Below are positions 1 to 46,452 of a DNA stretch of 46,452 nt, in pieces. Origin of the DNA: a virus; IMG/VR virus record IMGVR_UViG_3300049933_000058, positions 1 through 46,452 of that record, one strand, 5' to 3'. The first letter of the stretch is position 1. Every line of letters begins with the position of its first letter. A program made the translations under genes and the position numbers. Below the pieces are notes generated by a model, which was not told the origin of the DNA, did no database searches, and was given only the letters and a program-made list of their open reading frames with translations.

Positions 1-127
1 GTATCAACACTATACCTGTGTCTACAAGGTTGGCTATGGTGCTGATGATAATGGTTTTACCCTCGTCTCTCATCAGGTAGCCAGACTGCTCACAAAGGCG
101 CTGTAACAGTTTATAGTCACTCAAGCC
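1..127. repeat. Terminal direct repeat (left copy), identical to 46326..46452
   Basis: Bases 1-127 match 46326-46452 exactly. This implies a circular or terminally redundant complete assembly with a unique length of 46325 bp. Confidence 0.95.
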
Positions 128-1264
128 ATGCTGGTCTATATGGTCGTAAGTTACATCAGTAGGAGCCTCCCACTTCAGAACACCCCCGTGGGACTTAGTT
201 ATCTTTTCCGCCAACTGCTTTAGAGACAACTTACCCTCTGTTTTAGTACGTTGCCTCCTAGACAGCTCAAAACCTATCCCCAGACCTGTTAACTCGGTTT
301 TACCCTCTGATAGCCCGTGTGTGCCCTGATGGTAGTACTCAAAACTCACATCATCTATTGTCACAATGAGTTTGTTACCCTTTACGACAGCTTGCGCTGT
401 AGCAGCGTTACCTGTGTCAAGCCCTGTAGACTCTGGAGTAACCTTAGGGGCTACAGCCCCACCGCCGGCTTCCGCTATAAGCGCTGCTGTAGGTGCTCCT
501 TCCCACTTGGCGAAGGCTTTCAACCACCTAGGCATCTGAGAGGGCACAATACCATTAATAACGCGCCTTGAGTTGTAGATGTCCTTTTTACCACCGCCTA
601 AATAGGCAGACATCTTCCTCCCGGTAAAGAGACCATCACGGCACCCTACAGCCATAATACGGGCAGCTATAGCAGGGTCTGCCACATAGTCTGGGTTAGC
701 AATAAGGTCTACATTAAGGCGCTTAGTCCACTTGGCAAAGTTAACCCTCCCCGTCATTTGAGCGAAACCTCTACCCCTAAACTTGTAACCGTCACCTGGC
801 TGGGTGTTACCGATGTCCCTCCTACCTTCATAACGGTTGAAATAGGAGCGACTACCCTCTTCTACCAAGATACGCCCCATGTCTGTCTCATGTTCAGCCA
901 CCGCCAACAGATAGGTGATATGTAACGGGTCTGTCAACCCTGCTGCCAACCCAGCCTTAACAATAGCTAACTGAACTGACTTCTTATCCCGCCCTACGGT
1001 GCCAGGTGGCACACTACCACCACTATCTGGTGTTACACTGCCAGGTTCCATTGGAGGGCTCTCAGGCGGCTCTATAGACTGTATACCACCACTTTTAAAG
1101 GTGTGGTTAATAACCCTTTCAGCTATAAGGTGTCCGGGGTCTGCCACCACCACTCTCACCGCCGAGCCTTGCTTACCCTGTCCAAGTGACACCACTAGCT
1201 CTGTGAGACGGTCACCAACACTCCACTCCTCTAAACCCTCTAGTTGTACTGTTGCTCTCAACAT
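1..1264 (-). CDS. Tail hub / tail-associated lysin, N-terminal part with GH19 muramidase-like domain. Same ORF as 45379..46452 across the circular junction.
   Basis: The minus-strand ORF is open from ATG 1264 to the window start and is in frame, through the 127-bp overlap, with 45379..46449. My translation contains AEHETDMG ... GDGYKFRGRGFAQMTGRVNFAKW, a GH19 chitinase-like / phage lysozyme signature. The whole protein is about 736 aa. Confidence 0.8.
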   Translation of the reverse strand, partial: MLRATVQLEGLEEWSVGDRLTELVVSLGQGKQGSAVRVVVADPGHLIAERVINHTFKSGGIQSIEPPESPPMEPGSVTPDSGGSVPPGTVGRDKKSVQLAIVKAGLAAGLTDPLHITYLLAVAEHETDMGRILVEEGSRSYFNRYEGRRDIGNTQPGDGYKFRGRGFAQMTGRVNFAKWTKRLNVDLIANPDYVADPAIAARIMAVGCRDGLFTGRKMSAYLGGGKKDIYNSRRVINGIVPSQMPRWLKAFAKWEGAPTAALIAEAGGGAVAPKVTPESTGLDTGNAATAQAVVKGNKLIVTIDDVSFEYYHQGTHGLSEGKTELTGLGIGFELSRRQRTKTEGKLSLKQLAEKITKSHGGVLKWEAPTDVTYDHIDQHGLSDYKLLQRLCEQSGYLMRDEGKTIIISTIANLVDTGIVLI

Positions 1265-1268
1265 GTTA

Positions 1269-1493
1269 TCACAAAGTGTATGTGTCCACTAACTGACTAA
1301 GGAAAGGATGTGTTCTCATCTTTTGTAGGAGTGCATCTAGAGTTGGTGCTTGGCAATGCACTTCTGACCCTATGAGCAAGTTATAGGAACATCCCACCCC
1401 ACTTCTAGATATCATTTGGCATCTGTAAACTAAACATGGGTATATATGCCTAGACAGCCTACCCATAGCTTCCAACTCAGGGTCATCTCTCAT
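1269..1493 (-). CDS. Hypothetical small protein upstream of the hub/lysin gene
   Basis: The ORF track gives 1269..1568. I prefer the internal ATG at 1493, which follows AAGGAG (GATAAAGGAGTTGATATG). The stop lies 4 nt before the hub gene start. Confidence 0.5.
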   Translation of the reverse strand: MRDDPELEAMGRLSRHIYPCLVYRCQMISRSGVGCSYNLLIGSEVHCQAPTLDALLQKMRTHPFLSQLVDTYTL

Positions 1494-1528
1494 ATCAACT
1501 CCTTTATCTATACTCAGGGACGCTGCAA

Positions 1529-1610
1529 CCACACTCACACCTAGAGATATCTCCCTTGGTGTTATCACATTATCACCACCCTAAAGATATCTAGTTGTGT
1601 GAGTGTGTTT
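1529..1610. promoter_or_regulatory. Divergent control region with inverted arms flanking TGTTATCACA plus TTATCACC
   Basis: Left arm is CACACTCACAC-CTAGAGATATCT and right arm is AGATATCTAG-TTGTGTGAGTGTG. The GATATC sites are at 1546-1551 and 1586-1591, 40 bp centre to centre. The region lies between minus gene 1493 and plus gene 1650. Confidence 0.6.
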
Positions 1611-1623
1611 AATGAGTTATAAT
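1595..1623 (+). promoter_or_regulatory. Sigma70-type promoter for the 1650 gene
   Basis: TTGTGT (1595-1600), a 17-nt spacer, then TATAAT (1618-1623), 27 nt upstream of ATG 1650. Confidence 0.6.
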
Positions 1624-1649
1624 AGGGAGAGACGAGATGGGTTAAAGGT

Positions 1650-2432: not shown

Positions 2433-2482
2433 CAATGCCCACCTAACAGTGTTAGCGTCAAGTTAACGTTGTAGGAAAGAGT

Positions 2483-2863
2483 ATGTCAAACCTTGCTAGA
2501 GAAGCCGCGATACGGGATAAAATAGCCTCACAGCTTAGCAATGCTGAGTACTGTAAAACTGAGTATAGGATACCCTTAAACAGCACAGGGGGTGGGAGAC
2601 GCCGTAACCGTTCTATGGATGTCTTTGTGCAACATGAGTCTATAAAATATATTATAGAAGTTAAACACGCACCTAAGTACACTCAGGCTATAGGGCAGTT
2701 GATAGCCTATAGGGCATTACACTGTCAAGACTGTAGACTGGTAATAGTTTTATATGGTACACCCGCAGAGATAGCGGAATATAAACCTGAGTGCCAAAAA
2801 GTATTGACATCACTAGAGGTATCGAATAACCTTAAAATGGTACTGATGAGCGAGTTAGGATAA
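2483..2863 (+). CDS. PD-(D/E)XK nuclease-fold protein (putative)
   Basis: MDVFVQHESIKYIIEVKH gives a D...E-x-K arrangement after an N-terminal helix (EAAIRDKIASQL). Confidence 0.5.
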   Translation: MSNLAREAAIRDKIASQLSNAEYCKTEYRIPLNSTGGGRRRNRSMDVFVQHESIKYIIEVKHAPKYTQAIGQLIAYRALHCQDCRLVIVLYGTPAEIAEYKPECQKVLTSLEVSNNLKMVLMSELG

Positions 2864-3982: not shown

Positions 3983-4528
3983 ATGGACTATAGGAAGCCG
4001 GCAATGTTATCACAAGAGGAGTGGAGAAGAGGCTATGACCTCTGGTTAAGAAGTGGTTACACCCTAGAACAGGTAGGTAGGCACCTGGGGTTACGTCCTA
4101 ACAGTGGTCGGAGTGTGTCAACATATCTCAATAAATATTTTGGCAGGGGTGCGACAGACCCTATAGCCAACAGCTTTGTGAGGTCGATGGCTGAGGACTA
4201 TCCAGGTGAGCCGTGGGTGGCAGGGTTGGAACCGGAGGATAACCGGGGGTCTGGGAGGTTTATGACGATATCCGTAGAGCGTGGTTTAGCCACTAAGGGG
4301 ACGGCTAAACTGGTGGGGAACCGTTCTAATGAGATGAAGTACCGGATAGCTTACCAACAGTCTCTAAGACAGTCCTACGACCCGTGGGAGCAGTTTGAGC
4401 CTAAACCTTATAGCCTGCTGATGTTCACACTGGTTTTTAACGCTATTATCCCATTGTTAGAGTTGTTACTGAGAGGTCAGAATAGTGGCGGTATTCAACT
4501 ACAAAGCAATGTTATCACGAGTGACTGA
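3983..4528 (+). CDS. HTH-containing protein, possibly the DNA-recognition component of the small terminase
   Basis: HTH-like segment GYTLEQVGRHLGLRPNSGRSVSTYL. It sits directly upstream of the terminase genes. Confidence 0.5.
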   Translation: MDYRKPAMLSQEEWRRGYDLWLRSGYTLEQVGRHLGLRPNSGRSVSTYLNKYFGRGATDPIANSFVRSMAEDYPGEPWVAGLEPEDNRGSGRFMTISVERGLATKGTAKLVGNRSNEMKYRIAYQQSLRQSYDPWEQFEPKPYSLLMFTLVFNAIIPLLELLLRGQNSGGIQLQSNVITSD

Positions 4529-4811
4529 GTTTGGGGGTGACCCTCTACAACTCATGGAACAGGCAGAGGAGATAAGGTTGGCATCACTAAGTGAGGGTGT
4601 ACTCACCGAAAAGATATCGGTAAAGGATGGGGTGTTAGAGGTCAATGAGCGTAACCCCCAGACCGCCTTAGCAGCAGTCCGTTTAAAGTTTGACCTAACC
4701 AAGTGGTTGACAGTTCAAACCGAAGCTAACCAGGAGGAAAACACCGAGTGTAGGCTTGTTATAACAGGGTTGGATATGACGCCGCCGAAGGAGATACAAC
4801 GTTATGGGTGA
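4485..4811 (+). CDS. Terminase small subunit-like protein
   Basis: Its stop overlaps the large terminase start (ATGGGTGA). Size and position are typical. ATG 4509 is an alternative start. Confidence 0.5.
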   Translation: MAVFNYKAMLSRVTEFGGDPLQLMEQAEEIRLASLSEGVLTEKISVKDGVLEVNERNPQTALAAVRLKFDLTKWLTVQTEANQEENTECRLVITGLDMTPPKEIQRYG

Positions 4812-6132
4812 CTTGGTACTGACACCCCACCCTAAGCAGTGTGAAGTAATGAACAGCCGTGCCAAGGTGACGATGATAAGGGCGGGGCGACGGTGGGGTA
4901 AGACTAAGTTAGGTCAGTACCTCAGCATCCTTTGGTGTCTCAACTGGCGAGAGATGCTCCTTAGGAAGGGCTGGGATATGGAGGGGACATGGGCTGATGG
5001 GCATAAACCTGTGAACCTTGTGACAATGCCTACAGCAGTTATGGCTCGTCAAATATGGTTTGAGTCTCTCTATAGTATGTTATCACAACACCCTTTGGTA
5101 GCAAGTATCAATAAGCAGTCAATGACTTTTAAGTTTAAGGGTGACCGGCCTGACTTGTTGATAAGGGGGGCTAACGATGCCAATGGTGACCGCTTACGCG
5201 GGTTAAAAGTCATGGCACTGTGGGTAGACGAGGTACAGAACGTTAGACAACCTGTGATAGACCGTGTGTTGATGCCAGCAATGTCCGACTTACCCTTTAG
5301 TCAAGCCTATATGACGGGGACACCTCTTGGTAAGAGTAATGTCTTCTATAGACTGTGGCAACGTGATAACGGGGATAGCACCCGTCAACTAAACTACCAC
5401 TTTCCTACTGAAACTAACCCCTACTTCCCTAAGGATGAGTTAAGAGAGTATAAACTGATACTACCCCCGTCTGTTTACAGGGAGGAATATGAGGCGACCT
5501 GGGAAGACACCCCCGGTGCATGGTTCACCAGTCTGGATGAGGACAACCTCACAGACGAGTTACCGCCTGACTGGGAAGAGTGTATTCTAGGGGTTGACCA
5601 CGGCGACATCAACCCAGCCCATATTGTGATAGTTCGTTACAAAGACACCTGGATATATGTTGATGGGTGGCAACCCAATAACACAGCCGTTTCGGATGGT
5701 GAGGGGCATCAGTTTAAAGCATTGCCGATACCTGAGTATGAACAAAACGACTCCTTAGTGCAACTGGCTAAAAACTGGGACGTTACAGAGACCCGGTGTG
5801 ACCCTGCAAGACCAGCCAGAGTATTAGATATTCGTATACTGGGCAAAGAACAGCGTCTAACGGGGCTACAGAGGTCGGTAGCGGGTTATAACAAACAACT
5901 GGATGGCATCTCCCAGATGCATAACTTAATGGCTCAGAAGCGCTTGTTGTTTTACCGAGGGCAGAAGGCAGGCGGTAACACTCTAGACGGGCAAACCTTA
6001 TATGACCTGTGTAAAAGTTATCACAAGAAACTTGACCCTGATGGTAACCCGTTACCTATAGAGGCACCCGGTCAAAATAGCCATGCCATAGATGCTCTAA
6101 GGTATGCCATAGCGCGTCAAACTACCCGATAG
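4804..6132 (+). CDS. Terminase large subunit
   Basis: Walker A-like RAGRRWGKTKLG and Walker B LWVDEVQ. The C-terminal nuclease region carries acidic motifs (GVDHGD, HAIDALRYA). Confidence 0.85.
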   Translation: MGDLVLTPHPKQCEVMNSRAKVTMIRAGRRWGKTKLGQYLSILWCLNWREMLLRKGWDMEGTWADGHKPVNLVTMPTAVMARQIWFESLYSMLSQHPLVASINKQSMTFKFKGDRPDLLIRGANDANGDRLRGLKVMALWVDEVQNVRQPVIDRVLMPAMSDLPFSQAYMTGTPLGKSNVFYRLWQRDNGDSTRQLNYHFPTETNPYFPKDELREYKLILPPSVYREEYEATWEDTPGAWFTSLDEDNLTDELPPDWEECILGVDHGDINPAHIVIVRYKDTWIYVDGWQPNNTAVSDGEGHQFKALPIPEYEQNDSLVQLAKNWDVTETRCDPARPARVLDIRILGKEQRLTGLQRSVAGYNKQLDGISQMHNLMAQKRLLFYRGQKAGGNTLDGQTLYDLCKSYHKKLDPDGNPLPIEAPGQNSHAIDALRYAIARQTTR

Positions 6133-14186: not shown

Positions 14187-15173
14187 CTACTCTAGTCTTT
14201 GGTGTTCAGAGTCTATCCAGGACAAGGGGTAAGTGGGAGGGTATGAGCCTTTGTCAAGCAGGGTATTAACTAGGTCTATTTCAGGTTGGCGGATAAAACC
14301 GTCTAAGAGCATTGCTGGGAAGTAAACACTCATTTCTTTCCAAACAGCCCTCCTAGCTTCGATATGGATAGCGCCTGGCATAGGGTCGCCGCTTTTTAAG
14401 AACCTTTTGGGTGCGTTTATTCTCACAGCCTCCCTTAGTTTCTCTATTAAACCTCGCACACCTAACGTATACTCTGGCACTATCCCCTTATCTACATTCT
14501 CCTGTATCCGTTTTGCAACTACTACCGGGCAATGGAAACACCCCATTCTTAGACTTCCTGTTTGTGACTCTGCTATCTCATACATATCCATTATGTTATC
14601 ACAACACCCTTGGTATAATATACCATCGATATACATTGTGATATAGTCCCATACATCACAGTTACCCCATTCGCTAATAGGTTCTAAGCCGTTGCTCAGG
14701 TCGGATAAGCCACACTCGCCGTCTCTACAGTCTTTAATACGCTTATCCCTTTTACTAGACTCTCCTAAGTGTACCCCCGTTAAAGCAATACCTGGTATTG
14801 CTTTCATAGGTCTTACTTTAAGGTTATTGGTACACCATCGGTTGCGGTAGGTAGGTACAGGGTAACCTAGCCCAAACTGAGTAACCCAGTAACTACGGGT
14901 GATATCCGGCTTGGTCTGTATAAACTCCACCTTACCTTTACAAGCCTCCTTAACACAGTCTATCAGGTGATATAGCTTATTCACCTCTAGCCCCGTATCT
15001 GAAAACACTACCTTTACATTTAGAGCCTCCCCCCTTAACTCACACCATTTTAGGTAAAGTGCCAATAGCACATGACTATCTTTCCCACCCGAAAAAGCCA
15101 ATAAGTATTCTTTATCCTTGGGTAGAGCATCTAACATGTTATAACTGCGCTCTATTTTTGCTTCTAAGTTCAT
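14187..15173 (-). CDS. PP-loop ATP pyrophosphatase of the PAPS reductase / DndC-like family
   Basis: LLAFSGGKDSHVLL (SGGKDS PP-loop), NRWCTNNLKVRPM (PAPS reductase/DndC-like), and Cys motifs CRDGEC and CFHC. Confidence 0.7.
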   Translation of the reverse strand: MNLEAKIERSYNMLDALPKDKEYLLAFSGGKDSHVLLALYLKWCELRGEALNVKVVFSDTGLEVNKLYHLIDCVKEACKGKVEFIQTKPDITRSYWVTQFGLGYPVPTYRNRWCTNNLKVRPMKAIPGIALTGVHLGESSKRDKRIKDCRDGECGLSDLSNGLEPISEWGNCDVWDYITMYIDGILYQGCCDNIMDMYEIAESQTGSLRMGCFHCPVVVAKRIQENVDKGIVPEYTLGVRGLIEKLREAVRINAPKRFLKSGDPMPGAIHIEARRAVWKEMSVYFPAMLLDGFIRQPEIDLVNTLLDKGSYPPTYPLSWIDSEHQRLE

Positions 15174-15207
15174 TACCACTGTCCCACTACAACATCCTTA
15201 TTATACC

Positions 15208-18566: not shown

Positions 18567-20352
18567 TAATACAGTTAGTTTTCTATTCACGGCGACCGAC
18601 CGCGTAACCCGTACTGTCAACAACATCAAGAGCAGTATATCAGGTCTGACTGGTAGCGCTGCCCCTGGTGGTGTTGGCGGTGTGGCGGCTTCCTTCCTGG
18701 GTAACTTAGGCAGTAGCGCTGTGTTGGGTGGCATATCCCTTGCTACTCAGGGTATACAGAGAATGACCGGTGCTATGAATGACGCCGTATCAGCTCAAAC
18801 TGCCTTCATCACTACTGCATCAGGTCTTGGTAACTCCCTAGGAGTGCCTATGAAAGAGTCTAAAGCTCTACTGGAGACCCTACAGAAGGACTTAAGCACG
18901 GTAGCAGCAGTGCTACCGGGTGAAAATAAAGACTACCTAGCCGTGTTAAATATGCTCTCTGACACTGTTGCAACAGGGTTTAAGGGGGATATAGAGGGCT
19001 TTAAGGGTGCTATCCTAGACATAACCAAGAGGACAGCAGCGCTCGGTAGCACTATACCGGGTCTGTCCGGTGAAGCCTCAGGGCAGACTATGGAGATGCT
19101 CATGAATGGTAACACCCTCACAAGCCTCAAACGTCTAGACCTATTCCAAAAGAATGCACCCCTTAAAAACGCTTTAGAGCGTGAGATGAAGGCAGCTAAC
19201 CTAGAGGATAAGAACTGGACAAGGGCGACCTTAAAACAGCGTATAGCGGTCATACAGAAGGCGTTAAAAGCCACTGCCACTGATGAACTGTTCAGCGAGT
19301 TTCAAGACACGGCTGAGTCATTGATGCAGGGCATGAAGAACGCTATCTTTGATATGCAAACCGGCGTGTTCGGGTTTATGAGGAGAGTGGGTAGCCGTGA
19401 AGACCGAACTGTGCTAGATGCCTTCACCGAAGTATTGAAGCGTATCAGAACACTGGGCAGTGCCGGCAATAGGTTGGCGAGGGCGTTAGGCTTCTCCTTT
19501 GACCCTATGGAGACGCTCATAGACGTTATGGATGGTGTTAATAACTTCCTAGGTAACATTGCCTACCAGTTGGATATAAGCCCCCCAGAACTCGCTGTGA
19601 GCAACGTTATAGGCTTTATTGGTGAATGGGTCTCAGGTATGTTTAGCAAGGCTGTGGAGGGTGTCAAAGGCTTAGATAGCAGCTTTCTAGGTAAGGGCGT
19701 AGATATGATAGGACACTTTGTAGGTAATATTAACTGGACAACTGTCGGGAGACTACTTGGCAACACTGTGTGGAAGATGCTTATCGGGCTTGTGAGAGCT
19801 ATACCAAACGTCGCTATAACCGTAGGTAAAATAGCTGTAGGGCTTGTCCAGATAGTATCTGGGTTTGTCATAGGTGTTGTGGAAGGTATAGGCCAAAGCC
19901 TTTACAACCTATTTCTTAAACCCATAGTTGACTTCTTTAACCGAATGCGCGCTTGGTGGGATAAGCTCAAGTCATCTATGCCCAACCTGGGTGGTGTCGG
20001 TAACGCTGTGCAAGCGGTTGCTAACGTTGTCACAAACCCTGTAGGAGCTGCTATAAACCTAGGTAAGAAAGTATTAGGGATAGGTGATAACAAAGACAAA
20101 CCGCTCGCCCCCGGTCAGCCCCCGGTTAACGCGGATAAGGTGAATGCTGCCAACAAGGTAGCCAGCCCTATCAAACCGGTGGAACCGGTTAAGACAGTAC
20201 AGAAGACAGCCTCTAACAACACTCAGACCAACACCATCGCTGGGTTGACCATAAACGCGGCTAACGCCGGCACCCCTCAGGAGATAGCCAGCGTCGTTAT
20301 TGAAGAGTTAAACCGCCAACTCAACTTCAAAGTAGCTCAGCAACTAGCCTAG
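18556..20352 (+). CDS. Tape measure protein
   Basis: 598 aa, Gly/Ala-rich with hydrophobic segments, after the chaperone pair. Confidence 0.75.
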   Translation: MSYDNTVSFLFTATDRVTRTVNNIKSSISGLTGSAAPGGVGGVAASFLGNLGSSAVLGGISLATQGIQRMTGAMNDAVSAQTAFITTASGLGNSLGVPMKESKALLETLQKDLSTVAAVLPGENKDYLAVLNMLSDTVATGFKGDIEGFKGAILDITKRTAALGSTIPGLSGEASGQTMEMLMNGNTLTSLKRLDLFQKNAPLKNALEREMKAANLEDKNWTRATLKQRIAVIQKALKATATDELFSEFQDTAESLMQGMKNAIFDMQTGVFGFMRRVGSREDRTVLDAFTEVLKRIRTLGSAGNRLARALGFSFDPMETLIDVMDGVNNFLGNIAYQLDISPPELAVSNVIGFIGEWVSGMFSKAVEGVKGLDSSFLGKGVDMIGHFVGNINWTTVGRLLGNTVWKMLIGLVRAIPNVAITVGKIAVGLVQIVSGFVIGVVEGIGQSLYNLFLKPIVDFFNRMRAWWDKLKSSMPNLGGVGNAVQAVANVVTNPVGAAINLGKKVLGIGDNKDKPLAPGQPPVNADKVNAANKVASPIKPVEPVKTVQKTASNNTQTNTIAGLTINAANAGTPQEIASVVIEELNRQLNFKVAQQLA

Positions 20353-20796: not shown

Positions 20797-21077
20797 GTGA
20801 GCAGTGGCATAAGTACCTTGTTGGCTTTAGGTATTGGTGTGACTTCTACCATCTCATAGCCTTCTAGGTTTAAACAGGCAGCATAGAGGTCAAGGTTAGT
20901 GGTGTTGTAAGGGTCTCCTAGAGTATGCCCATAGTAACCCTGACTCATTGATAATGCATTCAAGGTATAAACATCCAAAGGTTCATACTCAGGTTCTACC
21001 AACTTATCAGGCTCATTGTGTGGTGTTGTGATAACAATATTAAGGAGGTTATCAAGGCGTTGAATATTTATGACCAT
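20793..21077 (-). CDS. Small protein coupled to the HExxH protein (immunity/inhibitor candidate)
   Basis: 94 aa. Its start overlaps the end of 21068..22270. Confidence 0.5.
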   Translation of the reverse strand: MVINIQRLDNLLNIVITTPHNEPDKLVEPEYEPLDVYTLNALSMSQGYYGHTLGDPYNTTNLDLYAACLNLEGYEMVEVTPIPKANKVLMPLLT

Positions 21078-22270
21078 TGGTTTATTAGTGTTCCTACGGT
21101 GAAGTGGTATAAGTCAGGGTCTTGACGGTAGAGCGTTGCCATGTTTTTAGAGGTGGTAAAGTCCTGTAAACCCATAGATGTTACTTCTGTCCCTACCTCC
21201 TTGAAACCGTTGTTATAAACTTTACCTATATATGGTGAATGGTATTTGCCAGGCAATGCTAGCTCATCTTCGCTATAACCCTCCATCCGTTCGGGTTTAA
21301 GTGAGAAAGCTCTATCATTACGCCATGAGATAGCAGCATCAAGCTGCTTACGGTTGTCTTCTTCCCAAGCGTGACCCGCCTCATGATAGGTTACAGTCCT
21401 ACTATAAAAAGACTTATCACCTACATTAAAGTAACCATCGTCTGTGTTAAAGTAAGGTCTATCTTTTTTGTAGCCTATTGTTTTAATAATGCCGTTACCC
21501 GACGTTAACTCATACAAGTCGGCAATATCTTTTTTAACTTTGGCTGCATACTCATTATCGAGGTTGTCAACCTTAACCTTGCTAGCTAACACCTCAGCCT
21601 CAGAACGGCTAATACGGCTATTAGCTCTTAGGTTACTTAGCAAAGTCTCATGAGCTGCTGACTCTAGCTCAAGTTGTTTAGAATACGCCTCATCTTTCTC
21701 CTTTACCTTTTTAGCTAGTTTGTTTATTAGTTTCTGTCTCTCCTCAGGCGTCCTAGCTGTTGCTACTCTCTTCAATAAGGCGTTACCCTCTTCCTTTAAC
21801 TTATCGACCCTGGCTGATAACTCCACCACCTTTGGGTCTGTTTTTATAAACTGTTCTGTATATGCCTTCCCAGCCCTTACAAACTCCTTAGAGCTGTATG
21901 CCTTCGGCTTGTCTACCACTTTCTTATACCGAACTTGTGATAACAAGTTCTCCTTCCATGAGTCTTTACGGTTTCTATAGCTGGTAGGTTGGCTCACCCC
22001 TGCCTTATTGGTTAACTTCCTTAGGTCTGATAAGTTCATCTTATCCAGTTCCTTGGTCAGCTCTCCCAAACTCTTAGAGGTTAGACCCTTACTATTAAGC
22101 AGGCTAACTAACTTAGTAGCCTGCTTTGATGAGAGTTCCTTCTCTATTCGCTTACGTTCTTTGCCAACGTTATGTTTAACCTGTACTGCTTTCGCGCCCG
22201 GTGTCCCCTTGCTAGCAAACCTCCCTTTGGCGTCTCTATAATATGTTCTAGTTACCGTCTTCCCAGCCAT
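21068..22270 (-). CDS. Modular protein: basic/coiled-coil N-terminus shared with 22568..24010, plus a C-terminal HExxH zincin-like domain
   Basis: Carries TVTYHEAGHAWEED. Its N-terminal RDAKGRFASKG ... KERKRIEKELSSKQ parallels RKGNGQFNGS ... RERDRIKAELSQEQ in the paralogue. Confidence 0.6.
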   Translation of the reverse strand: MAGKTVTRTYYRDAKGRFASKGTPGAKAVQVKHNVGKERKRIEKELSSKQATKLVSLLNSKGLTSKSLGELTKELDKMNLSDLRKLTNKAGVSQPTSYRNRKDSWKENLLSQVRYKKVVDKPKAYSSKEFVRAGKAYTEQFIKTDPKVVELSARVDKLKEEGNALLKRVATARTPEERQKLINKLAKKVKEKDEAYSKQLELESAAHETLLSNLRANSRISRSEAEVLASKVKVDNLDNEYAAKVKKDIADLYELTSGNGIIKTIGYKKDRPYFNTDDGYFNVGDKSFYSRTVTYHEAGHAWEEDNRKQLDAAISWRNDRAFSLKPERMEGYSEDELALPGKYHSPYIGKVYNNGFKEVGTEVTSMGLQDFTTSKNMATLYRQDPDLYHFTVGTLINQWS

Positions 22271-24899: not shown

Positions 24900-24972
24900 G
24901 GTACTATGGCTCAATGGTTAGAGCAGCTTCCTTATAAGAGGTTGGTTATGGGTTCGAGTCCCATTAGTACCA
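24900..24972 (+). tRNA. tRNA-Ile, anticodon UAU (reads AUA)
   Basis: Hand fold: GGTACTA-TG-GCTC-AATGGTTA-GAGC-A-GCTTC-CTTATAA-GAGGT-TGGTT-ATGGG-TTCGAGT-CCCAT-TAGTACC-A. Total 73 nt, with a 7-bp acceptor stem and a canonical T loop. Confidence 0.85.
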
Positions 24973-25001
24973 CTCTGTTATCACAATACTACGACCACCA
25001 T

Positions 25002-25598: not shown

Positions 25599-25793
25599 TT
25601 AGTGAGGTGGTAGTGTTGGCAGGTCTTTGAGCATTAGTTTACCAACCAACTCAGTGTATAGGGTGACCGTGATGAGGTGTTGCTCAAACAGTTCTATTAA
25701 CACTGCTTTAGTCTGGTCTGGTGACATATCCCTGACCATCAGTTTAAAAGACTCTAGAGTTAGTTGCTTCTCTAGCGGTAACTCGGTAGTCAT
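25599..25793 (-). CDS. nblA: NblA-like phycobilisome degradation protein
   Basis: ELPLEKQLTLESFKLMVRDMSPDQTKAVLIELFEQHLITVTLYTELV aligns with the NblA pattern (Anabaena NblA as I recall it: ELSLEQQFSIRSFATQVQNMSHDQAKDFLVKLYEQMVVREATYQELL). Length 64 aa. Confidence 0.75.
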   Translation of the reverse strand: MTTELPLEKQLTLESFKLMVRDMSPDQTKAVLIELFEQHLITVTLYTELVGKLMLKDLPTLPPH

Positions 25794-26170: not shown

Positions 26171-27208
26171 TTAGGGTGTCCCTAAGTCTGTAATAATACC
26201 TAGTTGTTTGCGGTTGTGGTACTGCAACTGTGGCATAACATACATTTCAAAGTTGTATACCGCTGAGTTGTTGCTCGGTAACTGTGCCATATAGAGGACA
26301 AACCCTCCTAGACGGGTTGCAGCAACTATCTTAGCCTGTGGGGTCATTGCTGACATCTGCCCCTGACCTTGGAAAAGGAAGCTGTAGAGCTTCATATAAC
26401 CCGTGTTCAGAAACAACATAGTGTCACTAGGACACTGAGGGTCAACCACCATCTCTCTACCCATGTAGGAGAACTCACCACGACCTAGGTCTACGTTGGC
26501 GTCTTTCATCTCGCCACCGGAGTAGCCCACTAGCTTATCAAACTCAGCACCGTATAGGCGTTTGATAGCAGGGCTGATGATAACTAGGTCAAAGGATACT
26601 TCGTTTAAGTAGAGTGACTCCTCAAACTCATCCAGGATGGCTCTTGTCAAGGGTCGGTTAGTACCGGCGTTACCCAGGATAACCCCCGGTTTCCACACAG
26701 GGTACGTTGCTGGGTTAATAGTGGCATAGGTAGCGGCTGGGTCACATATGAGGTTCAGCCCTGCAATGCCTGACTCCGCACTGCCACCAGACTGGATACC
26801 ATTACCCGTGTATAGACGGTTGTTGAGCTTACGGCGTATCTCCCTGATGGAGTTGTCTATCTCTACGTTGAGAATGCGCGCTAAGTCTTCCGGCGCTCGG
26901 TTGTAGGCTTCACTGATGCTTACCGCATCAACTTGGAAGCGTCTATAGATACGACGTTTACCGATACGTAACTCGGCATTGATAGCATCATCGGAAGCTG
27001 TGATAGTGGTGTCTTCAACCACAGCACCTTCACCCACTGCGGTACCGTCTATTTCCACGTCCCACCCGATAAAAGTATCACTTTTATCGATAACTTCAAT
27101 ACGGTCTGTGAGGGCATCAAAGGTAGGTGCCATCTCTTTCTGAGTCTTGGCTACCCTATCGTCTAACACCTTGTTTAGCACCGGGTCGCCGAGGTTAAGA
27201 ATAGTCAT
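26171..27208 (-). CDS. Major capsid protein (putative)
   Basis: 345 aa, directly downstream of a scaffold-like gene. Called from size and position only. Confidence 0.6.
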   Translation of the reverse strand: MTILNLGDPVLNKVLDDRVAKTQKEMAPTFDALTDRIEVIDKSDTFIGWDVEIDGTAVGEGAVVEDTTITASDDAINAELRIGKRRIYRRFQVDAVSISEAYNRAPEDLARILNVEIDNSIREIRRKLNNRLYTGNGIQSGGSAESGIAGLNLICDPAATYATINPATYPVWKPGVILGNAGTNRPLTRAILDEFEESLYLNEVSFDLVIISPAIKRLYGAEFDKLVGYSGGEMKDANVDLGRGEFSYMGREMVVDPQCPSDTMLFLNTGYMKLYSFLFQGQGQMSAMTPQAKIVAATRLGGFVLYMAQLPSNNSAVYNFEMYVMPQLQYHNRKQLGIITDLGTP

Positions 27209-39891: not shown

Positions 39892-40446
39892 ATGAAGTCA
39901 CATTACGACCAAGAGGGTTTTAGGGCTGAGGAGATGATAACTAGGTGGTTGGCTATGACTGGCTACCTAGTAAAAACCTCAACATGGCAGGAGGATGTCA
40001 AGGAGGACATTGACATCTGGGTGAAGGGAAGACAGTTTACTCATTGGACATCAGTCAGCATCAAGAGCCAAGCCGTAGGCATTGTCTATGGCACTCTGGG
40101 GTTTGAGTTGGGTGGCACTCGTGGGATGGGATGGTTCAATACGGGCAAAGCTGAGCAATATCTTATCATTCGAGACCCACAGTTTATACCCAAATGGCGG
40201 TTAGATATCCTAGGCCAAGTGCCTATGACGTATCAGCCAAAGTTTATCTGGTTGCCTAAGCAAAGGGTTCAATACCATCTAGAGAGTGTGGGTTGGGCTT
40301 ATAAGAGAGGGTTGAGCCCCGCTGTTCTAGCGAGACAAAATGGCAGGGACGCTGTGAGTGGCTACCTCTATTGTAAAGATATATTAAAGAGGTCAGACAT
40401 AGAGGTGTTACCGAGAGGTTGGTGTGCTATGGTAGAGGGAGAGTAA
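39892..40446 (+). CDS. PD-(D/E)XK nuclease-fold protein (putative)
   Basis: GFRAEEMITRWLAMTGYLV ... EDIDIWV ... VSIKSQ. Confidence 0.45.
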   Translation: MKSHYDQEGFRAEEMITRWLAMTGYLVKTSTWQEDVKEDIDIWVKGRQFTHWTSVSIKSQAVGIVYGTLGFELGGTRGMGWFNTGKAEQYLIIRDPQFIPKWRLDILGQVPMTYQPKFIWLPKQRVQYHLESVGWAYKRGLSPAVLARQNGRDAVSGYLYCKDILKRSDIEVLPRGWCAMVEGE

Positions 40447-40457: not shown

Positions 40458-43151
40458 ATGTACATCAAACCCCTGTCAGAAGCTTTACACCAACGTCTTT
40501 TAGGGCGTCCACCCCAGCCTGTGGCACCTCAAGACGTTAGACGGATAGCTCAGTACATCGCCCGTTTCTTTCCCGACGGTGTAGAGGATAACTCTAAAGT
40601 GGTAGAGTTACCACTACCGAAGTGGGCACCCAGTCAACAACAGTTAGACAAGGATATAGAGGCATTGGCAATGCCTTGTATTAGTCAGGTGTTAGCCTGG
40701 ATGGATGTTGACAGACTGGTAACTCCTCATAACTGGCAATGTCCTGTAGGTTGGTCTCAATGGGCAGGTGAACAATGGGTTAGTATTGAACAGCCCCCTC
40801 CCGGCTGTTATATGCTTGACATTGAGACTGTACCCGTAGAGTGGAGACATTTTAGTGCAGGCGGTGACCCTGAGCCGACATTGTGGGCACCTGTTTGTAG
40901 CATAGCTGTAAGCCTAACTGATGTTTATGTTTGGAGAGCAGACCACCGTGGCGGGTTAGAGGACTTAGACCTGCTTTACCCAGGCGTGGACGGGGTAAGC
41001 ATAGGTCATAACATCGGTTATGACCAGAGTTACTCACTGCGGGAGCATGTCTCCCACTTTGACGACTGGTCACAGCGCCCGATGGCTGTAGACACAATGG
41101 GTCTCTGGATGGTCACTAGAGGTCATTGCAACCAGCAGAGGGCGTTAGTTAACTTAGAGGACGGATGGCAACCAGCGTGGACAGACGAAACCACAGGGGC
41201 AAGCCTAGTTAATGTCTATGAGTTCTATTTCAATGAACCTCTGGATAAAGGGGTGCGTGATAACATTGTCAAACAGGGTTGGGAGTTCGTTAGGAACAAC
41301 TACCCCACAGTACTGGAGTATTGTTATAACGATATTGTAGCGTGCGCTCAGGTGTTTCAAGCGTTGATGAGGGAGTGGATAGAGGCCAACACATACCAGG
41401 GTCAAACCCAATGGCTCACACTGTGGTCGATGATGCTCCTTAGTCAGTCTTGGTGCCCATTAGACGAAGACCTGGCACCGGACTACTTCAATAACGCTGA
41501 GGAGCATTACCAAAGCATTAAAGCAACATTATCACAAGACCTATTAAAGTCTGCTGACGATGTTATAACACACTTTGAACAGTTGTTGTCGTACCATTGG
41601 GATAGTGAACCGGATGCTATCAACTATGCTCTAACAGTAACCCAGTCTGGGAAGAAGTACTGTTACGTCCTATGGGAGGGCGAGGAAGACCCCACAGAGA
41701 GAGAGTTACAGCTTATTCACTCCTTAGACTGGACGCCTGCCTTAACCGGTAAAAATAAAGGTGTTGCTGCATGGTATCGCGGGCTTCTTAAGAACTGCTC
41801 CATAGGGTCTAAACTGGCACCTATTATCATGGGTTTCACCTGGAAAGGTTCACTCTTATACTACAACGACTCTGTAGGATACCATACTTGTGATAACAAG
41901 GGTAATGTGACAAAGGTATCTAACCCTGACAAGCGTGGTAAGCCAGTGCACTCGATGTTGATGAAAGGTTTTAAGGATGACGCCCGGTTATCGGCTATAA
42001 CACCAATATCAGAGGGTATCCTTAAAAAGGTTCATTCTACGTTAAACTGGGTTAGCCTAAGGAAGCGTGTTGCAGGGTTGCACGCCTACGACCTAGAGGG
42101 CTACCCCGTATTTAAAGACCAGTTAAGACCTTGGGGTACGGTCACCCGGCGTTCCACTAGTAGTATCACCCAAGTTCTACCTAAGATGGACAAGTATGGG
42201 TGTGTGGGCGCTAACGTTAGGGCATTGTTTAAGCCACCTAGGGGGATGAGGTTCATCACGGCTGACTTTGACTCACAAGAGCTACTGTTGGCAGCAGAGT
42301 TAGGAGACGCTATCCTAGAAGCCTACAAAAGAGTGGGTTACCGAGGTTCAACACCTTTCAGTATCAGTTGCCATATTGGGGAGAAAGAGAATAAGACAAC
42401 CCCCCACTGGCTGTTATCACTGAGCGCTCAAATAGACTACACTCTAGCCAAAAACATTGGCTACGCTGTTATCTACGGTCAGTCTGTAAACGGTTCGGTT
42501 GACTACTTCCTGATGGCTAACAAGGATATGAGTCAGTCGGAAGCCTTAGAAAGAGCTACTACCACACACAACAAACAGAAGGGTGTCAGAGACCGTGCTA
42601 GCGGGTTATATTACAACGGCGCTGCCAGTCCCACTTATAACAACTTAAACCGCCTTGTGGCCTCTCCCGACCCCCGGTCACTACTCTCTCATCAACAGAT
42701 GAGCAAGGCTTTATCACAAGCTAAGGGGGACTTTGTGACAACAAAGCAGAACTGGTTTATCCAGGAAGCCGGGTCTTCGATGCGTGACCGTCTCGTGGTG
42801 TACTCGTGGTACTTTATGCAACGTTATAACATCAGTGGTAGGTTGGTTATGACGGTTCACGACGAAGCATTGCACTGTGTGGTAGAGCATCAGGCTGAGT
42901 TGATGGCATACATATTGCAACTGTCACATCTGTATATAACAGCCTGGAAAACAGACCGGCTAAACCTAGATATCCTACCCGCAGGACAGTCCTACTTTTC
43001 ATCCGTAGAGGTTGATACCAGGTGGCGTAAGTCGGTAACTGCTAACCCTCCCAGCACCCCTGATATGCCCGATACGGTGTGGGAGCCTGGTTATAGCCTG
43101 AACCCATCAAGGCTTACAGCCTTGATAGAGTCTGGAGCTTTGGTCATCTAA
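40458..43151 (+). CDS. Family A DNA polymerase with 3'-5' exonuclease domain
   Basis: Exo motifs YMLDIET, GHNIGYDQSY and YCYNDIVA. Pol motif A ITADFDSQELLLAAEL, motif B LAKNIGYAVIYGQS and motif C MTVHDEALH. Confidence 0.9.
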   Translation: MYIKPLSEALHQRLLGRPPQPVAPQDVRRIAQYIARFFPDGVEDNSKVVELPLPKWAPSQQQLDKDIEALAMPCISQVLAWMDVDRLVTPHNWQCPVGWSQWAGEQWVSIEQPPPGCYMLDIETVPVEWRHFSAGGDPEPTLWAPVCSIAVSLTDVYVWRADHRGGLEDLDLLYPGVDGVSIGHNIGYDQSYSLREHVSHFDDWSQRPMAVDTMGLWMVTRGHCNQQRALVNLEDGWQPAWTDETTGASLVNVYEFYFNEPLDKGVRDNIVKQGWEFVRNNYPTVLEYCYNDIVACAQVFQALMREWIEANTYQGQTQWLTLWSMMLLSQSWCPLDEDLAPDYFNNAEEHYQSIKATLSQDLLKSADDVITHFEQLLSYHWDSEPDAINYALTVTQSGKKYCYVLWEGEEDPTERELQLIHSLDWTPALTGKNKGVAAWYRGLLKNCSIGSKLAPIIMGFTWKGSLLYYNDSVGYHTCDNKGNVTKVSNPDKRGKPVHSMLMKGFKDDARLSAITPISEGILKKVHSTLNWVSLRKRVAGLHAYDLEGYPVFKDQLRPWGTVTRRSTSSITQVLPKMDKYGCVGANVRALFKPPRGMRFITADFDSQELLLAAELGDAILEAYKRVGYRGSTPFSISCHIGEKENKTTPHWLLSLSAQIDYTLAKNIGYAVIYGQSVNGSVDYFLMANKDMSQSEALERATTTHNKQKGVRDRASGLYYNGAASPTYNNLNRLVASPDPRSLLSHQQMSKALSQAKGDFVTTKQNWFIQEAGSSMRDRLVVYSWYFMQRYNISGRLVMTVHDEALHCVVEHQAELMAYILQLSHLYITAWKTDRLNLDILPAGQSYFSSVEVDTRWRKSVTANPPSTPDMPDTVWEPGYSLNPSRLTALIESGALVI

Positions 43152-44003: not shown

Positions 44004-44381
44004 ATGATAGTCTCAGCCATTAACAACAGCTACAGCGCCTTACAGACAGCTTCTAGATGGTATTGGTCAGCACAGACTCAGCAGACTCTTTCCAACACTG
44101 TTCAAACCATTGCCGAGGTCTTCACCACACTCCTACTAGTGTTATCACAAGTCTACACAGACTATGTAACCCTTCTAGACATCTGGTTAACCCCCGGTTG
44201 CGACACTGAGACCTTTGTTATAACAAAGTTGATAGAACCACAACAACTAGACTGGCGAGACGTTGGTGGGATGTTACAAGCCGACTGTAGCTTTGTGATA
44301 ACATGGTTAGGGTTTACTTTAGGCGACCTGAGCCACGGTGTGACAGAGCTGTACTATCGAGTAAAGACGGTGTTAACATGA
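44004..44381 (+). CDS. Hypothetical protein
   Basis: 125-aa ORF containing three motif copies. Confidence 0.5.
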   Translation: MIVSAINNSYSALQTASRWYWSAQTQQTLSNTVQTIAEVFTTLLLVLSQVYTDYVTLLDIWLTPGCDTETFVITKLIEPQQLDWRDVGGMLQADCSFVITWLGFTLGDLSHGVTELYYRVKTVLT

Positions 44382-44623
44382 GTGAGCCAGATGCTACAGG
44401 GTGTTATCATGAGCCTATACACAAAGAAGTAGGCAAGTCTAAGTTAGTCAAAGTCAAGAGGGTTAGAAAAGCAATGAACTTCCAAACTGATGCTGAAACA
44501 CTGATGGCACTTGGGTTTAGAGTTGAAAGAGAAGACAGTTATGTTTATGTAGACAACAAAGGCTATATCATGACTAAAGGCTATACGCTAGGGCATCTAT
44601 ATTATCTACCGGACTGGGTGTAA
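44378..44623 (+). CDS. Hypothetical protein
   Basis: ATG 44378 overlaps the previous stop (ATGA). The ORF track starts earlier, at 44303. Confidence 0.5.
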   Translation: MSEPDATGCYHEPIHKEVGKSKLVKVKRVRKAMNFQTDAETLMALGFRVEREDSYVYVDNKGYIMTKGYTLGHLYYLPDWV

Positions 44624-44702
44624 CATGGTTTATTGGATGCTTGTTATAACACTTTGGTACTGCACACTGAGCATTGTGATAACACTGATAGGAGTTTAAC
44701 TT

Positions 44703-44858
44703 ATGTCTTACACTGATGGTTGGTATAAGTCACATGAGCTTTACCAGAACAATAAGATAATAGGTGCTGCTTTTTATGCTAAGTTGTTACTATGGGGCGG
44801 TGAGTACAGCGAATATGACCAAGGTTTTAAAGACGGTTGGGAACACCTAACGATATGA
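44703..44858 (+). CDS. Small hypothetical protein (51 aa, below the track cutoff)
   Basis: AGGAG lies 8 nt upstream. My translation is MSYTDGWYKSHELYQNNKIIGAAFYAKLLLWGGEYSEYDQGFKDGWEHLTI. Confidence 0.45.
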   Translation: MSYTDGWYKSHELYQNNKIIGAAFYAKLLLWGGEYSEYDQGFKDGWEHLTI

Positions 44859-44871
44859 TGTCAGTCTTTTA

Positions 44872-45309
44872 CTAGATGAGAGAGACAGCCTGAAAGGGTT
44901 GTCTCCTTTGTTTGGGGTAGTACTTATCCTTTAGAATAGGAGTGTCGATGAGGGTGGCTAGTTCATGGAGTGTCCTAGAGGCTTCTATCTTGACCATAGC
45001 CGAGCCACGTCCGAAGTCCAGGGTAAGTTGTCCCACCTGGTTAGCCATCGCCGTAGAGGTCATATCGCGCAGTTGTAGCTCCCAATACTGTAGCCAAGCA
45101 ACCAAGCGGTGTACCTGAACAATACGGGCGTCTGAAGCCTCAACCCGCGTGTCTCCCGAACCGGTGTGGCGGTTCTTGTACCGGAAGCTGTAGCCGAGCC
45201 AGGGGTATACATCTATGGTAGTGGGTAACCAACTGTTGGGGGGTATCTCTAGGGGCGTCCCCTCGGTAGGGTCAATAGGGTAGTCTGTACGGGTAATATC
45301 GGTGGTCAT
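44872..45309 (-). CDS. Hypothetical protein downstream of the hub/lysin gene (tail/baseplate candidate)
   Basis: Internal ATG at 45309 (MTTDITRTDY...). Confidence 0.5.
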   Translation of the reverse strand: MTTDITRTDYPIDPTEGTPLEIPPNSWLPTTIDVYPWLGYSFRYKNRHTGSGDTRVEASDARIVQVHRLVAWLQYWELQLRDMTSTAMANQVGQLTLDFGRGSAMVKIEASRTLHELATLIDTPILKDKYYPKQRRQPFQAVSLI

Positions 45310-45378
45310 AAGGGTTATAATAGGTGTTATAGAGAGATGGAGTAGCGCTGATGAAGACTTGCACAAAATGTCTGGAAA

Positions 45379-46452
45379 CTAAGGACTCGATAACGCCTTA
45401 ATGGTTTCACCCTTTTTAGGTATCCTCAGACCGAGCGCGCTAGTGTAGTTATAGGTTCCTCCACCAGATGACCGATAGGTGTTGCCTTGTAACCCAGTAA
45501 TATCAATGTGAAGATGCACCCCTGTAACCTTACCTGTAGCGCCTTGCTTACCTATTAACTCACCTCTCTTAACCTGTTGACCCATCCTAACTAAGCGCGC
45601 TGATAGGTGCATGTATCTGATAATGCTACCATCAGCGTGTTTTATATTGATACAGGTACCACTGCCAGCAAACCCACAGACCACACCGTCTTGCATAGAA
45701 TAGACAGGTGTCCCCTCACTTGCCGCGATGTCTAGACCGATGTGGGGGGAAGTACCAACGCTTCTTATTTGGTTCTGAGTAGAGGTGACCGTGCCATTAG
45801 TAGGCCAAACGTAACCCTGTCCTGTTGGTGGCTGTGGTGGTGTTTCCCCATTGGATACCCCTCCGGGTACCGAGTTATCCAAAACCTCTACAGGGCTGTA
45901 TACATTGAGTGTGGTGGTACCCTCTCTCAGGTTATGCTCTACCTTATCAATAGCCCATATCCGTGATAACACCCCTGGTAAACCCTCTGTGATAACAGTA
46001 AACAATGGTGCTAGGGTTAGGGAGGTCTTAGACAACGGGATAACAAAGGTAGAGGGTAACCCCTTGAGGCGCTTAGTACGGGCAACCTGTGTTGCAACAG
46101 TAGCTTGTGACTCCGGTGCGACCGTGGCTTGTTTGTTGTCTGACTTTGCCCCCGTAGCTGCTTTGTCCTTAGCCTTGTCAATATCAGGTGACTTAGCCTT
46201 AAAGGTGCCAGTAGCCGGTTCTAACTCTGTCTTCTGCTCTGTTTGGACAACACTCCTACCCTCATCCTCAGCATCGTCACCCAACGCCTCATCCTTGATA
46301 TCCCACTTCAACAGGTTTAGACCCGGTATCAACACTATACCTGTGTCTACAAGGTTGGCTATGGTGCTGATGATAATGGTTTTACCCTCGTCTCTCATCA
46401 GGTAGCCAGACTGCTCACAAAGGCGCTGTAACAGTTTATAGTCACTCAAGCC
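45379..46452 (-). CDS. Tail hub / tail-associated lysin, C-terminal part with M23 peptidase domain. Continues into 1..1264.
   Basis: M23 metallopeptidase motifs HIGLDIAA ... GVHLHIDI at the C-terminus. LSDYKLLQRLCEQSGY is weakly gpD-like. The ORF is open to the window end and continues at base 1264 via the overlap. Confidence 0.8.
   Translation of the reverse strand, partial: GLSDYKLLQRLCEQSGYLMRDEGKTIIISTIANLVDTGIVLIPGLNLLKWDIKDEALGDDAEDEGRSVVQTEQKTELEPATGTFKAKSPDIDKAKDKAATGAKSDNKQATVAPESQATVATQVARTKRLKGLPSTFVIPLSKTSLTLAPLFTVITEGLPGVLSRIWAIDKVEHNLREGTTTLNVYSPVEVLDNSVPGGVSNGETPPQPPTGQGYVWPTNGTVTSTQNQIRSVGTSPHIGLDIAASEGTPVYSMQDGVVCGFAGSGTCINIKHADGSIIRYMHLSARLVRMGQQVKRGELIGKQGATGKVTGVHLHIDITGLQGNTYRSSGGGTYNYTSALGLRIPKKGETIKALSSP
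46326..46452. repeat. Terminal direct repeat (right copy)
   Basis: Identical to bases 1-127. Confidence 0.95.

Follow-up and report, generated by a model that had tools for sequence, protein, structure and literature searches.

A cyanophage genome free of RATY tetranucleotides and the codon choice that keeps it so

The IMG/VR virus record IMGVR_UViG_3300049933_000058, analysed here over its full length of 46,452 bp (the window), contains no copy of AATT, AATC, GATT or GATC, the four tetranucleotides described by RATY (where R is a purine and Y a pyrimidine). The absence extends over positions 1..46452, in genes, tRNA and intergenic DNA alike and on both strands. Purifying selection on the DNA itself maintains it, acting through synonymous codons chosen according to their neighbours. 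On balance, we consider it probable that purifying selection, prolonged and almost without exception, has acted on the lineage of this virus against pairs of RA half-sites, exerted by one or several type II-like host nucleases that cut in the manner of ^AATT and ^GATC enzymes.

Results

RATY is missing from every part of the genome

The original prediction, made from the letters of the sequence, was that RATY occurs nowhere in the genome on either strand, and exact counts over the 46,452 bp indeed gave 0 for AATT, AATC, GATT and GATC alike. Base composition alone leads one to expect 234, 206, 204 and 180 copies, respectively (~825 in sum), and a second-order Markov model predicts ~300 for the four tetramers together. 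Dinucleotide-preserving shuffles (n = 100) contained 486 ± 19 RATY sites (maximum 531). Synonymous-codon shuffles (n = 200), which together with the exact tetramer count had been proposed as the check, contained 433 ± 15 sites with a minimum of 396, against 0 in the window. The 5.1 kb of intergenic DNA, in which ~104 sites are expected, is equally free of them, as are the genes on both strands in either orientation.

The remaining 12 NATN tetramers are present in 90–296 copies each, and the YATR, RATR and YATY contexts are as common as had been claimed (791, 881 and 863 copies, respectively), indicating that the absence does not reflect a general depletion of AT. After the RATY set, the lowest count is that of CGCA (23 copies). 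Of the 136 tetramer classes obtained by merging the strands, the window lacks exactly three, the palindromes AATT and GATC and the non-palindromic class AATC/GATT (termed the hybrid below), and this set is closed under recombination of the half-sites RA|TY. A cause acting on mRNA, such as an endoribonuclease toxin, is ruled out by the absence of both GATT and AATC from the sense strand in either gene orientation. Avoidance of CRISPR protospacer-adjacent motifs or TnpB transposon-adjacent motifs, xenogeneic silencing and mutational bias were rejected by inference, as none of them predicts a taboo that is absolute, strand-symmetric and half-site-closed.

Codon choice, a tRNA gene and dipeptide usage follow the taboo

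Coding sequence was examined in 68 longest open reading frame (ORF) calls made in this analysis, which cover 41.6 kb. Isoleucine following a codon that ends in A or G is encoded by ATA in 154 of 154 cases, and Asp and Asn preceding a codon that starts with C or T are encoded by GAC and AAC in 453 of 453. Hence the codon rules described in the original prediction, whereby Ile is ATA after a purine and GAT and AAT stand only before a purine, are exceptionless. Similarly, none of the 447 Lys, Glu, Gln, Gly and Arg codons located before a TY-starting codon ends in A.

ATA accounts for 47% of the Ile codons in the window compared to 6% in Leptolyngbya phage Lbo402-yong5. The sole tRNA gene of the window encodes tRNA-Ile(UAU), which decodes AUA (24900..24973, + strand; ARAGORN, with a score of 68.5 bits for the Rfam tRNA family). 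We read this gene as compensation because, under the taboo, AUA is the only Ile codon permitted after a purine-ending codon. A homologue is found at the same place in a relative with 90% identity in the large terminase TerL (locus L185; "the 90% relative"). Two close relatives that tolerate GATT/AATC show no tRNA in the interval adjoining the major capsid protein (MCP) gene that holds tRNA-Ile(UAU) in the window, an observation confined to that interval. An unrelated tRNA-Ile(UAU), 90 nt in length with a long extra arm that contains GATC, adjoins TerL in L023, a distant lineage without AATT, AATC and GATT, where it is followed by tRNA-Arg(CCU) (2526–2744). These sequences suggest that an AUA-decoding tRNA was acquired twice, convergently, under the same taboo. 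As regards the tRNA-Arg(CCU) that L023 carries, AGG is the replacement for AGA before TY-starting codons under the taboo. Two further calls were made by ARAGORN in the 90% relative, a candidate tRNA-Pyl(cta) (L019, 18137–18232) and a tRNA-Ile(gat) (L185, 2709–2781). The latter is probably a false positive, as the Rfam scan, which covered L185, did not recover it at the gathering threshold.

The effects reach the encoded proteins. All codons for Lys, Glu, Gln, Met and Trp have a purine in the third position, so that under the taboo an Ile after any of these residues can be written only with ATA. The observed/expected ratio (O/E) for [KEQMW]-Ile dipeptides is 0.58 in the window and 0.52 in the 90% relative, 0.69 in relatives that tolerate GATT/AATC, 0.84 in lineages that allow GATC and 0.93–1.06 in unconstrained cyanophages and cyanobacterial prophage-like loci. 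The Ile content is 4.9% in the window vs 6.1–7.3% in unconstrained controls.

Independent assemblies argue against a sequencing artefact

The original prediction had offered, as an alternative to selection, that virion DNA is modified at RATY and that these sites were systematically miscalled; removal of the sites by a pipeline filter is a variant of the same idea. Nothing apart from the oddity of the pattern was found to favour this idea; the window does carry a DndC/PAPS reductase-like ORF (described below). However, four other sequencing runs yielded Logan contigs with an identical TerL, and in the readable Logan stretches the mismatches to the window number 0 in 21.3 kb, 1 in 4.4 kb and 0 in 2.4 kb, so that assemblies of several runs, from the Joint Genome Institute and from Logan, agree. 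The 90% relative, which stems from another run, has 78% DNA identity to the window, with 6,936 mismatches over 31.7 kb aligned, and contains no RATY site in the 40 kb available. As 5.7% of all possible point substitutions in the window would create a RATY site, hundreds of sites would be expected in this relative were they tolerated. Relatives at 77% TerL identity (ENA) and 80% MCP identity (NCBI metagenome) are also RATY-free, and the full or a partial pattern, with few residual sites, recurs in relatives drawn from Logan, ENA, NCBI and IMG/VR.

The replacements themselves are varied. For 14 sites within TerL or MCP at which relatives carry GATT/AATC, the window encodes the same amino acid in 11 cases, and at least four different synonymous solutions are found at these homologous sites: ATT to ATA, a change of the preceding wobble base from purine to pyrimidine, GAT to GAC, and CAA to CAG. 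Base-calling error would give one uniform substitution, so heterogeneous replacements that preserve the amino acid do not derive from it, and the one to three stray sites kept in relatives indicate biology rather than a pipeline filter. The tRNA-Ile(UAU) and the dipeptide depletion are, moreover, evolved responses. Miscalling at modified sites is thus refuted, and we regard an artefact of either kind as barely conceivable.

Among relatives the taboo separates into AATT, GATC and their hybrid

Relatives were found by searches with TerL (4804..6132, + strand), which also served for the tree, and with the SU10-type MCP (26171..27208, – strand); most are partial contigs of 3–21 kb. When mapped on a simple neighbour-joining tree of TerL alone, four distinct avoidance states are seen. 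The window, the 90% relative (L019/L185), L186 and L272 belong to the same genus-level clade and have AATT/AATC/GATT/GATC counts of 0/0/0/0. In L020 (82% TerL identity) and L189 (82% MCP identity) these counts are 0/19/22/2 and 0/55/41/1, while L273 (69% TerL identity, 2.9 kb), in which AATT is partly depleted, has 3/0/0/0. The more distant lineages retain GATC: L187 (40% MCP identity, 19.4 kb) with 0/1/2/191, L274 (39% TerL identity) with 0/2/6/39, L021 (38% TerL identity) with 0/0/0/129, its IMG/VR relative L275 (89% TerL identity to L021) with 0/0/0/78 and L023 (35% TerL identity) with 0/0/0/44. AATT, GATC and AATC/GATT have therefore been lost and regained semi-independently. The TerL tree of the window clade is (L273,(L272,(L020,(L019,window)))), and on this topology the RATY-free state is probably ancestral in the clade. 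L020 looks like a secondary relaxation, in which GATT/AATC are back at an O/E of 0.38 and ATA usage still stands at 47%.

In three AATY-free lineages GATC was compared to synonymous shuffles that are themselves AATY-free, and observed and shuffled counts were 92 vs 97 in L021 (where sense-strand GATT and AATC are both 0), 61 vs 60 in L275 and 41 vs 52 in L023. GATC is thus neutral in these lineages, and where it seems enriched this follows from the taboo itself. In L187 GATC exceeds such shuffles (179 vs 129 ± 7), which suggests positive selection for GATC, or codon bias.

Scans of metagenomes, IMG/VR and GTDB genomes with a TerL profile contributed 240 loci. Outside the family, none of ~250 TerL-related loci lacks AATT or AATC/GATT, except two high-GC loci in which few sites are expected. 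Distant IMG/VR phages from the first TerL scan, used as controls, have normal RATY content. Depletion of GATC alone is common, being found in 49 of 183 related loci. Leptolyngbya phage Lbo402-yong5 (49 kb) has no GATC and no GGCC, with AATT/AATC/GATT counts of 233/350/320, and the parts of Mic1 and N1 that were compared have normal AATT, AATC and GATT, Mic1 being GATC-depleted.

These data bear on the number of agents. A single RATY enzyme predicts that the four tetramers are avoided together, and this is contradicted by L020 and L189, which keep AATC/GATT, by L021, L023, L187, L274 and L275, which keep GATC, and by L273, which keeps some AATT. Conversely, RATY might be a composite in this host, to which three unrelated host systems contribute: one enzyme for AATT, another for GATC (or a conflict of the Dam/DpnI type) and a third system that reads GATT/AATC. 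All pairwise combinations do occur among the relatives (AATT and GATC absent in L020 and L189; AATT and the hybrid in L021, L023, L187, L274 and L275; GATC and the hybrid in L273), depletion of GATC alone is frequent, as the related loci, Lbo402-yong5 and Mic1 attest, and GATC sits at the level of constrained shuffles in AATY-free lineages. However, the third absent class is the exact half-site hybrid of the other two, for which combinatorics on tetramer counts give a chance of only ~1 in 134 if the agents are unrelated. In addition, every relative that avoids the hybrid is also strongly depleted in one palindrome or both, and we know of no enzyme that reads the asymmetric 4-mer GATT. We therefore consider a composite of unrelated agents unlikely, though worth keeping in view.

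The genome avoids many other restriction sites

Depletion of other motifs was scored against synonymous shuffles that already obey the RATY taboo. GGNCC is absent, with all four of its pentamers missing, compared to 77 copies in these shuffles (138 are expected in a separate count), and CYCGRG occurs once compared to 29 (34.5 in a separate count). Also depleted are GWGCWC (5 vs 34), GRGCYC (6 vs 28), CAGCTG (0 vs 13), CTGCAG (0 vs 9), GGCC (27 vs 97) and TCGA (40 vs 98). Of the 56 6-bp palindromes that contain no RATY, 15 are absent: AGGCCT, CAGCTG, CCCGGG, CGGCCG, CGTACG, CTCGAG, CTGCAG, GACGTC, GCATGC, GGCGCC, GGGCCC, GTCGAC, TCGCGA, TGCGCA and TTCGAA. Many such sites are cut by classical cyanobacterial enzymes, including AsuI/NspIV, AvaI, AvaII, FspI/MstI, AsuII/NspV and SplI. 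Taken together, the avoided sites form the broad fingerprint of restriction avoidance that is typical of phages infecting filamentous cyanobacteria, and a genome so shaped by restriction provides a natural setting for the RATY taboo.

CGCA/TGCG is depleted to an O/E of ~0.2 in the window (59/317), L019 (31/141) and L021 (33/150), which exceeds what avoidance of TGCGCA alone accounts for. Other motifs are enriched. GTTAAC is ~4-fold over base composition (52 vs 12.8; in coding sequence, 41 vs 18.5 ± 3.1 in RATY-free synonymous shuffles), its copies being spread through all frames and intergenic DNA, and TTATAA (50 vs 16.6) and CCTNAGG (30 vs 9.8) are also high.

Candidate nucleases and modification enzymes of the phage

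A search of the 68 window ORFs against Pfam, PHROGs, PADLOC and NCBIfam recognised no methyltransferase or restriction enzyme. A PADLOC match to "MTase_II" proved to be the PP-loop domain of a 330-residue protein (14187–15179, – strand) and not a methyltransferase. This protein resembles DndC, BrxP, SspD and PAPS reductase (Pfam PF01507, E = 3.6e-13; PADLOC DndC, E = 1.4e-20, far below equivalog cutoffs) and, from these resemblances, may be a DNA or nucleotide sulfur/modification enzyme. Its identification as a lysidine synthetase was rejected, since the TilS match (E = 3e-5) is far below cutoff and reflects the common PP-loop alone. The protein is present in the 90% relative and seemingly missing at the corresponding place in L189.

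Two small ORFs were examined as nuclease candidates. The first, of 126 residues (2483..2863, + strand), has a D46...E59-x-K61 motif and an alpha-beta-beta-beta-alpha-beta order of secondary structure, which are PD-(D/E)xK-like, and gives weak matches to the profile hidden Markov models of TnsA_N (E = 0.14) and Cas4 (E = 0.007). Its AlphaFold2 model has a predicted local distance difference test score (pLDDT) of 50.8, too low to judge, and a fold search of the PDB was uninformative. The second, of 184 residues (39892..40446, + strand), lies between the primase/helicase and DNA polymerase genes and contains a possible nuclease-like motif by eye; it has no match in Pfam, PDB, NCBIfam or PADLOC, only three homologues, and a pLDDT of 39.8, again too low to judge. 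In the relatives, L019 carries an Endonuclease_7 (PF02945) gene (3999–4463) between conserved neighbours, of which the window has no copy and which may be a mobile nuclease insertion. L021 encodes a 217-residue ORF (19478–20131, – strand) that resembles C5 cytosine methyltransferases in their N-terminal half only, in a lineage where GGCC is 0 and GATC normal. PDB sequence searches returned no match.

These ORFs bear on the idea that the phage itself encodes a frequent-cutting nuclease that shreds host DNA for nucleotide recycling, its own genome being kept free of sites instead of methylated. Such a nuclease would fit the conservation of AATT and hybrid avoidance across deep phage lineages, and the window does encode a weakly matching, deoxynucleoside monophosphate kinase-like P-loop ORF and a 5'-3' exonuclease in addition to the PD-(D/E)xK-like ORF. 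Yet no window ORF matches a restriction enzyme family, the candidates being at the level of motifs, and L020 tolerates GATT/AATC despite keeping a 66%-identical copy of the 126-residue ORF. Moreover, avoidance of GGNCC, CYCGRG and the other sites cannot stem entirely from phage enzymes, which points to host restriction. We judge a phage nuclease to be improbable as the cause.

Genome organisation and identity of the phage

A 127-bp direct repeat is present at both ends of the window (1..127, + strand, and 46326–46452), which we read as an assembly overlap. By this repeat the window is a complete genome, circularly assembled or terminally redundant, of ~46,325 unique bp; the Logan contig of the same phage measures 46,355 bp. 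Matches to Pfam and PHROGs identify sheath, tube, baseplate J, tail collar, portal, TerL and an SU10-type capsid protein, as well as an M23 peptidase, a primase, the 5'-3' exonuclease, a gamma-like family A DNA polymerase and the phycobilisome degradation protein NblA. The NblA gene (25599..25793, – strand; PF04485, E = 8.4e-9) lies ~380 bp downstream of the capsid gene and is also found in L185; its presence indicates that the host is a phycobilisome-bearing cyanobacterium. The DNA polymerase (40458–43151, + strand) contains the mitochondrial-type exonuclease domain PF18136 and has ~23% identity to those of cyanophages S-TIM5, A-HIS1/2, Mic1 and S-CBWM1. The best GenBank matches of TerL and MCP are phages of Leptolyngbya, Microcystis and Nostoc/Anabaena at 25–33% protein identity, while a nucleotide search of the window against GenBank phages gave no match, such that relatives there are seen at the protein level only. 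NblA, these best matches and the gamma-like polymerase, a type common to cyanophages, establish this contractile-tailed phage as a cyanophage.

Two Lys-rich proteins without a family match, one of 400 residues with a HEAGH motif by eye (21068–22270, – strand) and one of 480 residues with an HH..N motif by eye (22568–24010, – strand), the latter conserved in L185, L020, L187 and L189, may be ejected or internal virion proteins. Strand switches are unusually frequent, the 68 ORFs being arranged in short alternating blocks with structural and replication genes intermixed, and the gene order is unlike that of L020.

Discussion

The agent behind the taboo

The reading we favour is restriction avoidance. 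The original prediction had proposed complete purifying selection against a host nuclease of RATY-like specificity; selection against a sequence-specific nuclease is indeed the best explanation, given the depletion relative to shuffles and the other sites avoided, and a single RATY nuclease is plausible for this host. The absence, the selection, the separability and the compensations are seen directly; a host nuclease as the agent, and the number of enzymes, are inferences. The restriction reading is supported because the avoided set varies among relatives, as restriction–modification (R-M) repertoires do among hosts, because the genome also avoids further restriction sites of the host type, and because the window contains no methyltransferase or recognisable restriction enzyme.

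In the mechanism we propose, the host agent would be either a relaxed-specificity RATY cutter or a set of related strict enzymes with activity on the hybrid site. A single surviving site would expose injected DNA to cleavage, which would account for the loss of every site. The loss is by synonymous change: ATY is replaced by ATA, or the preceding wobble purine by a pyrimidine; GAT and AAT give way to GAC and AAC ahead of a pyrimidine; and A-ending Lys, Glu, Gln, Gly and Arg codons are swapped before TY-starting codons. The phage tRNA-Ile(UAU) carries part of the cost, and another part is met by proteins in which Ile seldom follows Lys, Glu, Gln, Met or Trp. That the third absent class is the hybrid suggests RA|TY half-site logic, as would be produced by a dimeric enzyme in which each subunit accepts 5'-RA, and makes a RATY-type enzyme a good candidate. 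Blockage of such an enzyme by Dam methylation at GATC would account for lineages in which GATC is kept while AATT and the hybrid are missing. We favour a host family of ^AATT/^GATC-type nucleases, in which stringency for the outer bases varies by host, over three unrelated systems.

Methylation-dependent restriction, in which host adenine methyltransferases mark the phage DNA and nucleases dependent on N6-methyladenine (m6A) cut it in the next host, was also considered. Each RATY member contains an A that could plausibly carry m6A, methylation at AATT motifs has been reported from environmental methylomes, cyanobacteria widely methylate GATC, and differing sets of methyltransferases could give the mosaic of states among relatives. 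However, this scheme calls for a nuclease that is both m6A-dependent and promiscuous, together with methyltransferases of three specificities, and none of these was observed here. It predicts the half-site hybrid no better, and the GATC-neutral lineages would need hosts free of Dam or of DpnI. We hold it to be very unlikely.

Within host restriction, a more specific form can be put forward only tentatively. Filamentous or mat-forming cyanobacteria may possess an uncharacterised frequent-cutting nuclease, or mixed-dimer pair, that reads ^RATY (~1 site per 64 bp) and is blocked by adenine methylation at GATC. Being long-lasting, it could have stripped AATT and GATT/AATC from deeply diverged phage lineages, driven the convergent capture of tRNA-Ile(UAU) and reshaped proteomes. 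Several points weigh against the host-nuclease reading in general. No host, responsible nuclease, methyltransferase or methylome was found, and a scan for prophages and hosts found the nearest cyanobacterial genomes (Calothrix, Leptolyngbya and Nodosilinea) to be ~32% identical and all of normal RATY content. To our knowledge, no characterised enzyme has RATY or AATY specificity, and searches of open-access literature found no description of a RATY or AATY taboo, nor of AATT/GATC avoidance of this kind in cyanophages. L020 and L189, with AATT and GATC avoided and the hybrid present, need two strict enzymes, for which one RATY enzyme is insufficient. Finally, avoidance of AATT and the hybrid persists across lineages with only 35–40% TerL identity, which is unusual for R-M systems with their fast turnover and would also fit a cause intrinsic to the phage.

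Comparison with known systems

As a case of site avoidance the window is extreme, in that a taboo on 1/64 of tetramer positions is held at zero across genomes that have diverged by >20% in DNA, with effects that reach translation, through an AUA-decoding tRNA, and proteins, in which Ile is avoided after five amino acids. The mosaic among relatives provides a natural experiment on how fast such a taboo decays once selection relaxes, as in L020. Restriction fingerprints offer a possible route for matching uncultured cyanophages to their hosts, and a RATY cutter, if it exists, would be a new frequent-cutting reagent.

Avoidance of restriction sites is well known in phages, examples being Staphylococcus phage K, which has no GATC, and cyanophages of Anabaena/Nostoc, in which sites of the AvaI/AvaII/AvaIII type are depleted. 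Like these, the window has lost short sites on both strands by synonymous change. Unlike these, its taboo is absolute and bears on a degenerate 4-mer, one that takes up 1/64 of sequence space and has a non-palindromic member, AATC/GATT. The window also differs in its 47% ATA, dedicated tRNA and depleted dipeptides, while Lbo402-yong5, Mic1 and N1 are normal for AATT, AATC and GATT.

Known enzymes cover parts of the set. MboI, DpnII and Sau3AI cut ^GATC, and Tsp509I and TspEI cut ^AATT. Cutters with R..Y degeneracy include CviJI (RGCY), which is encoded by an algal virus, ApoI (RAATTY) and BstYI (RGATCY), and FaiI (YATR) has the mirror degeneracy around a central AT. A further enzyme, MluCI, has AATT as its site (PMC8919816). 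Type II enzymes of the ^GATC and ^AATT kinds would together cover both palindromic members of RATY and the pattern of L020 and L189, but would leave GATT and AATC uncut, and no such gene was found for the window phage. With its palindromic core and outer purine/pyrimidine degeneracy, a RATY cutter would be the counterpart of CviJI for an AT core, a likeness in the form of specificity.

Phage tRNAs are known to offset differences in codon usage, and the tRNA-Ile(UAU) of the window likewise matches an overused codon. Unlike in the usual compensation, however, the overuse is forced by a taboo at the DNA level rather than by a mismatch in GC content, and an AUA decoder is found convergently in L023. 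Thus, while complete loss of GATC or GGCC in phages was already known, the RATY/AATY taboo is set apart by its unusual breadth, its non-palindromic member and its compensation in both tRNA and proteome.

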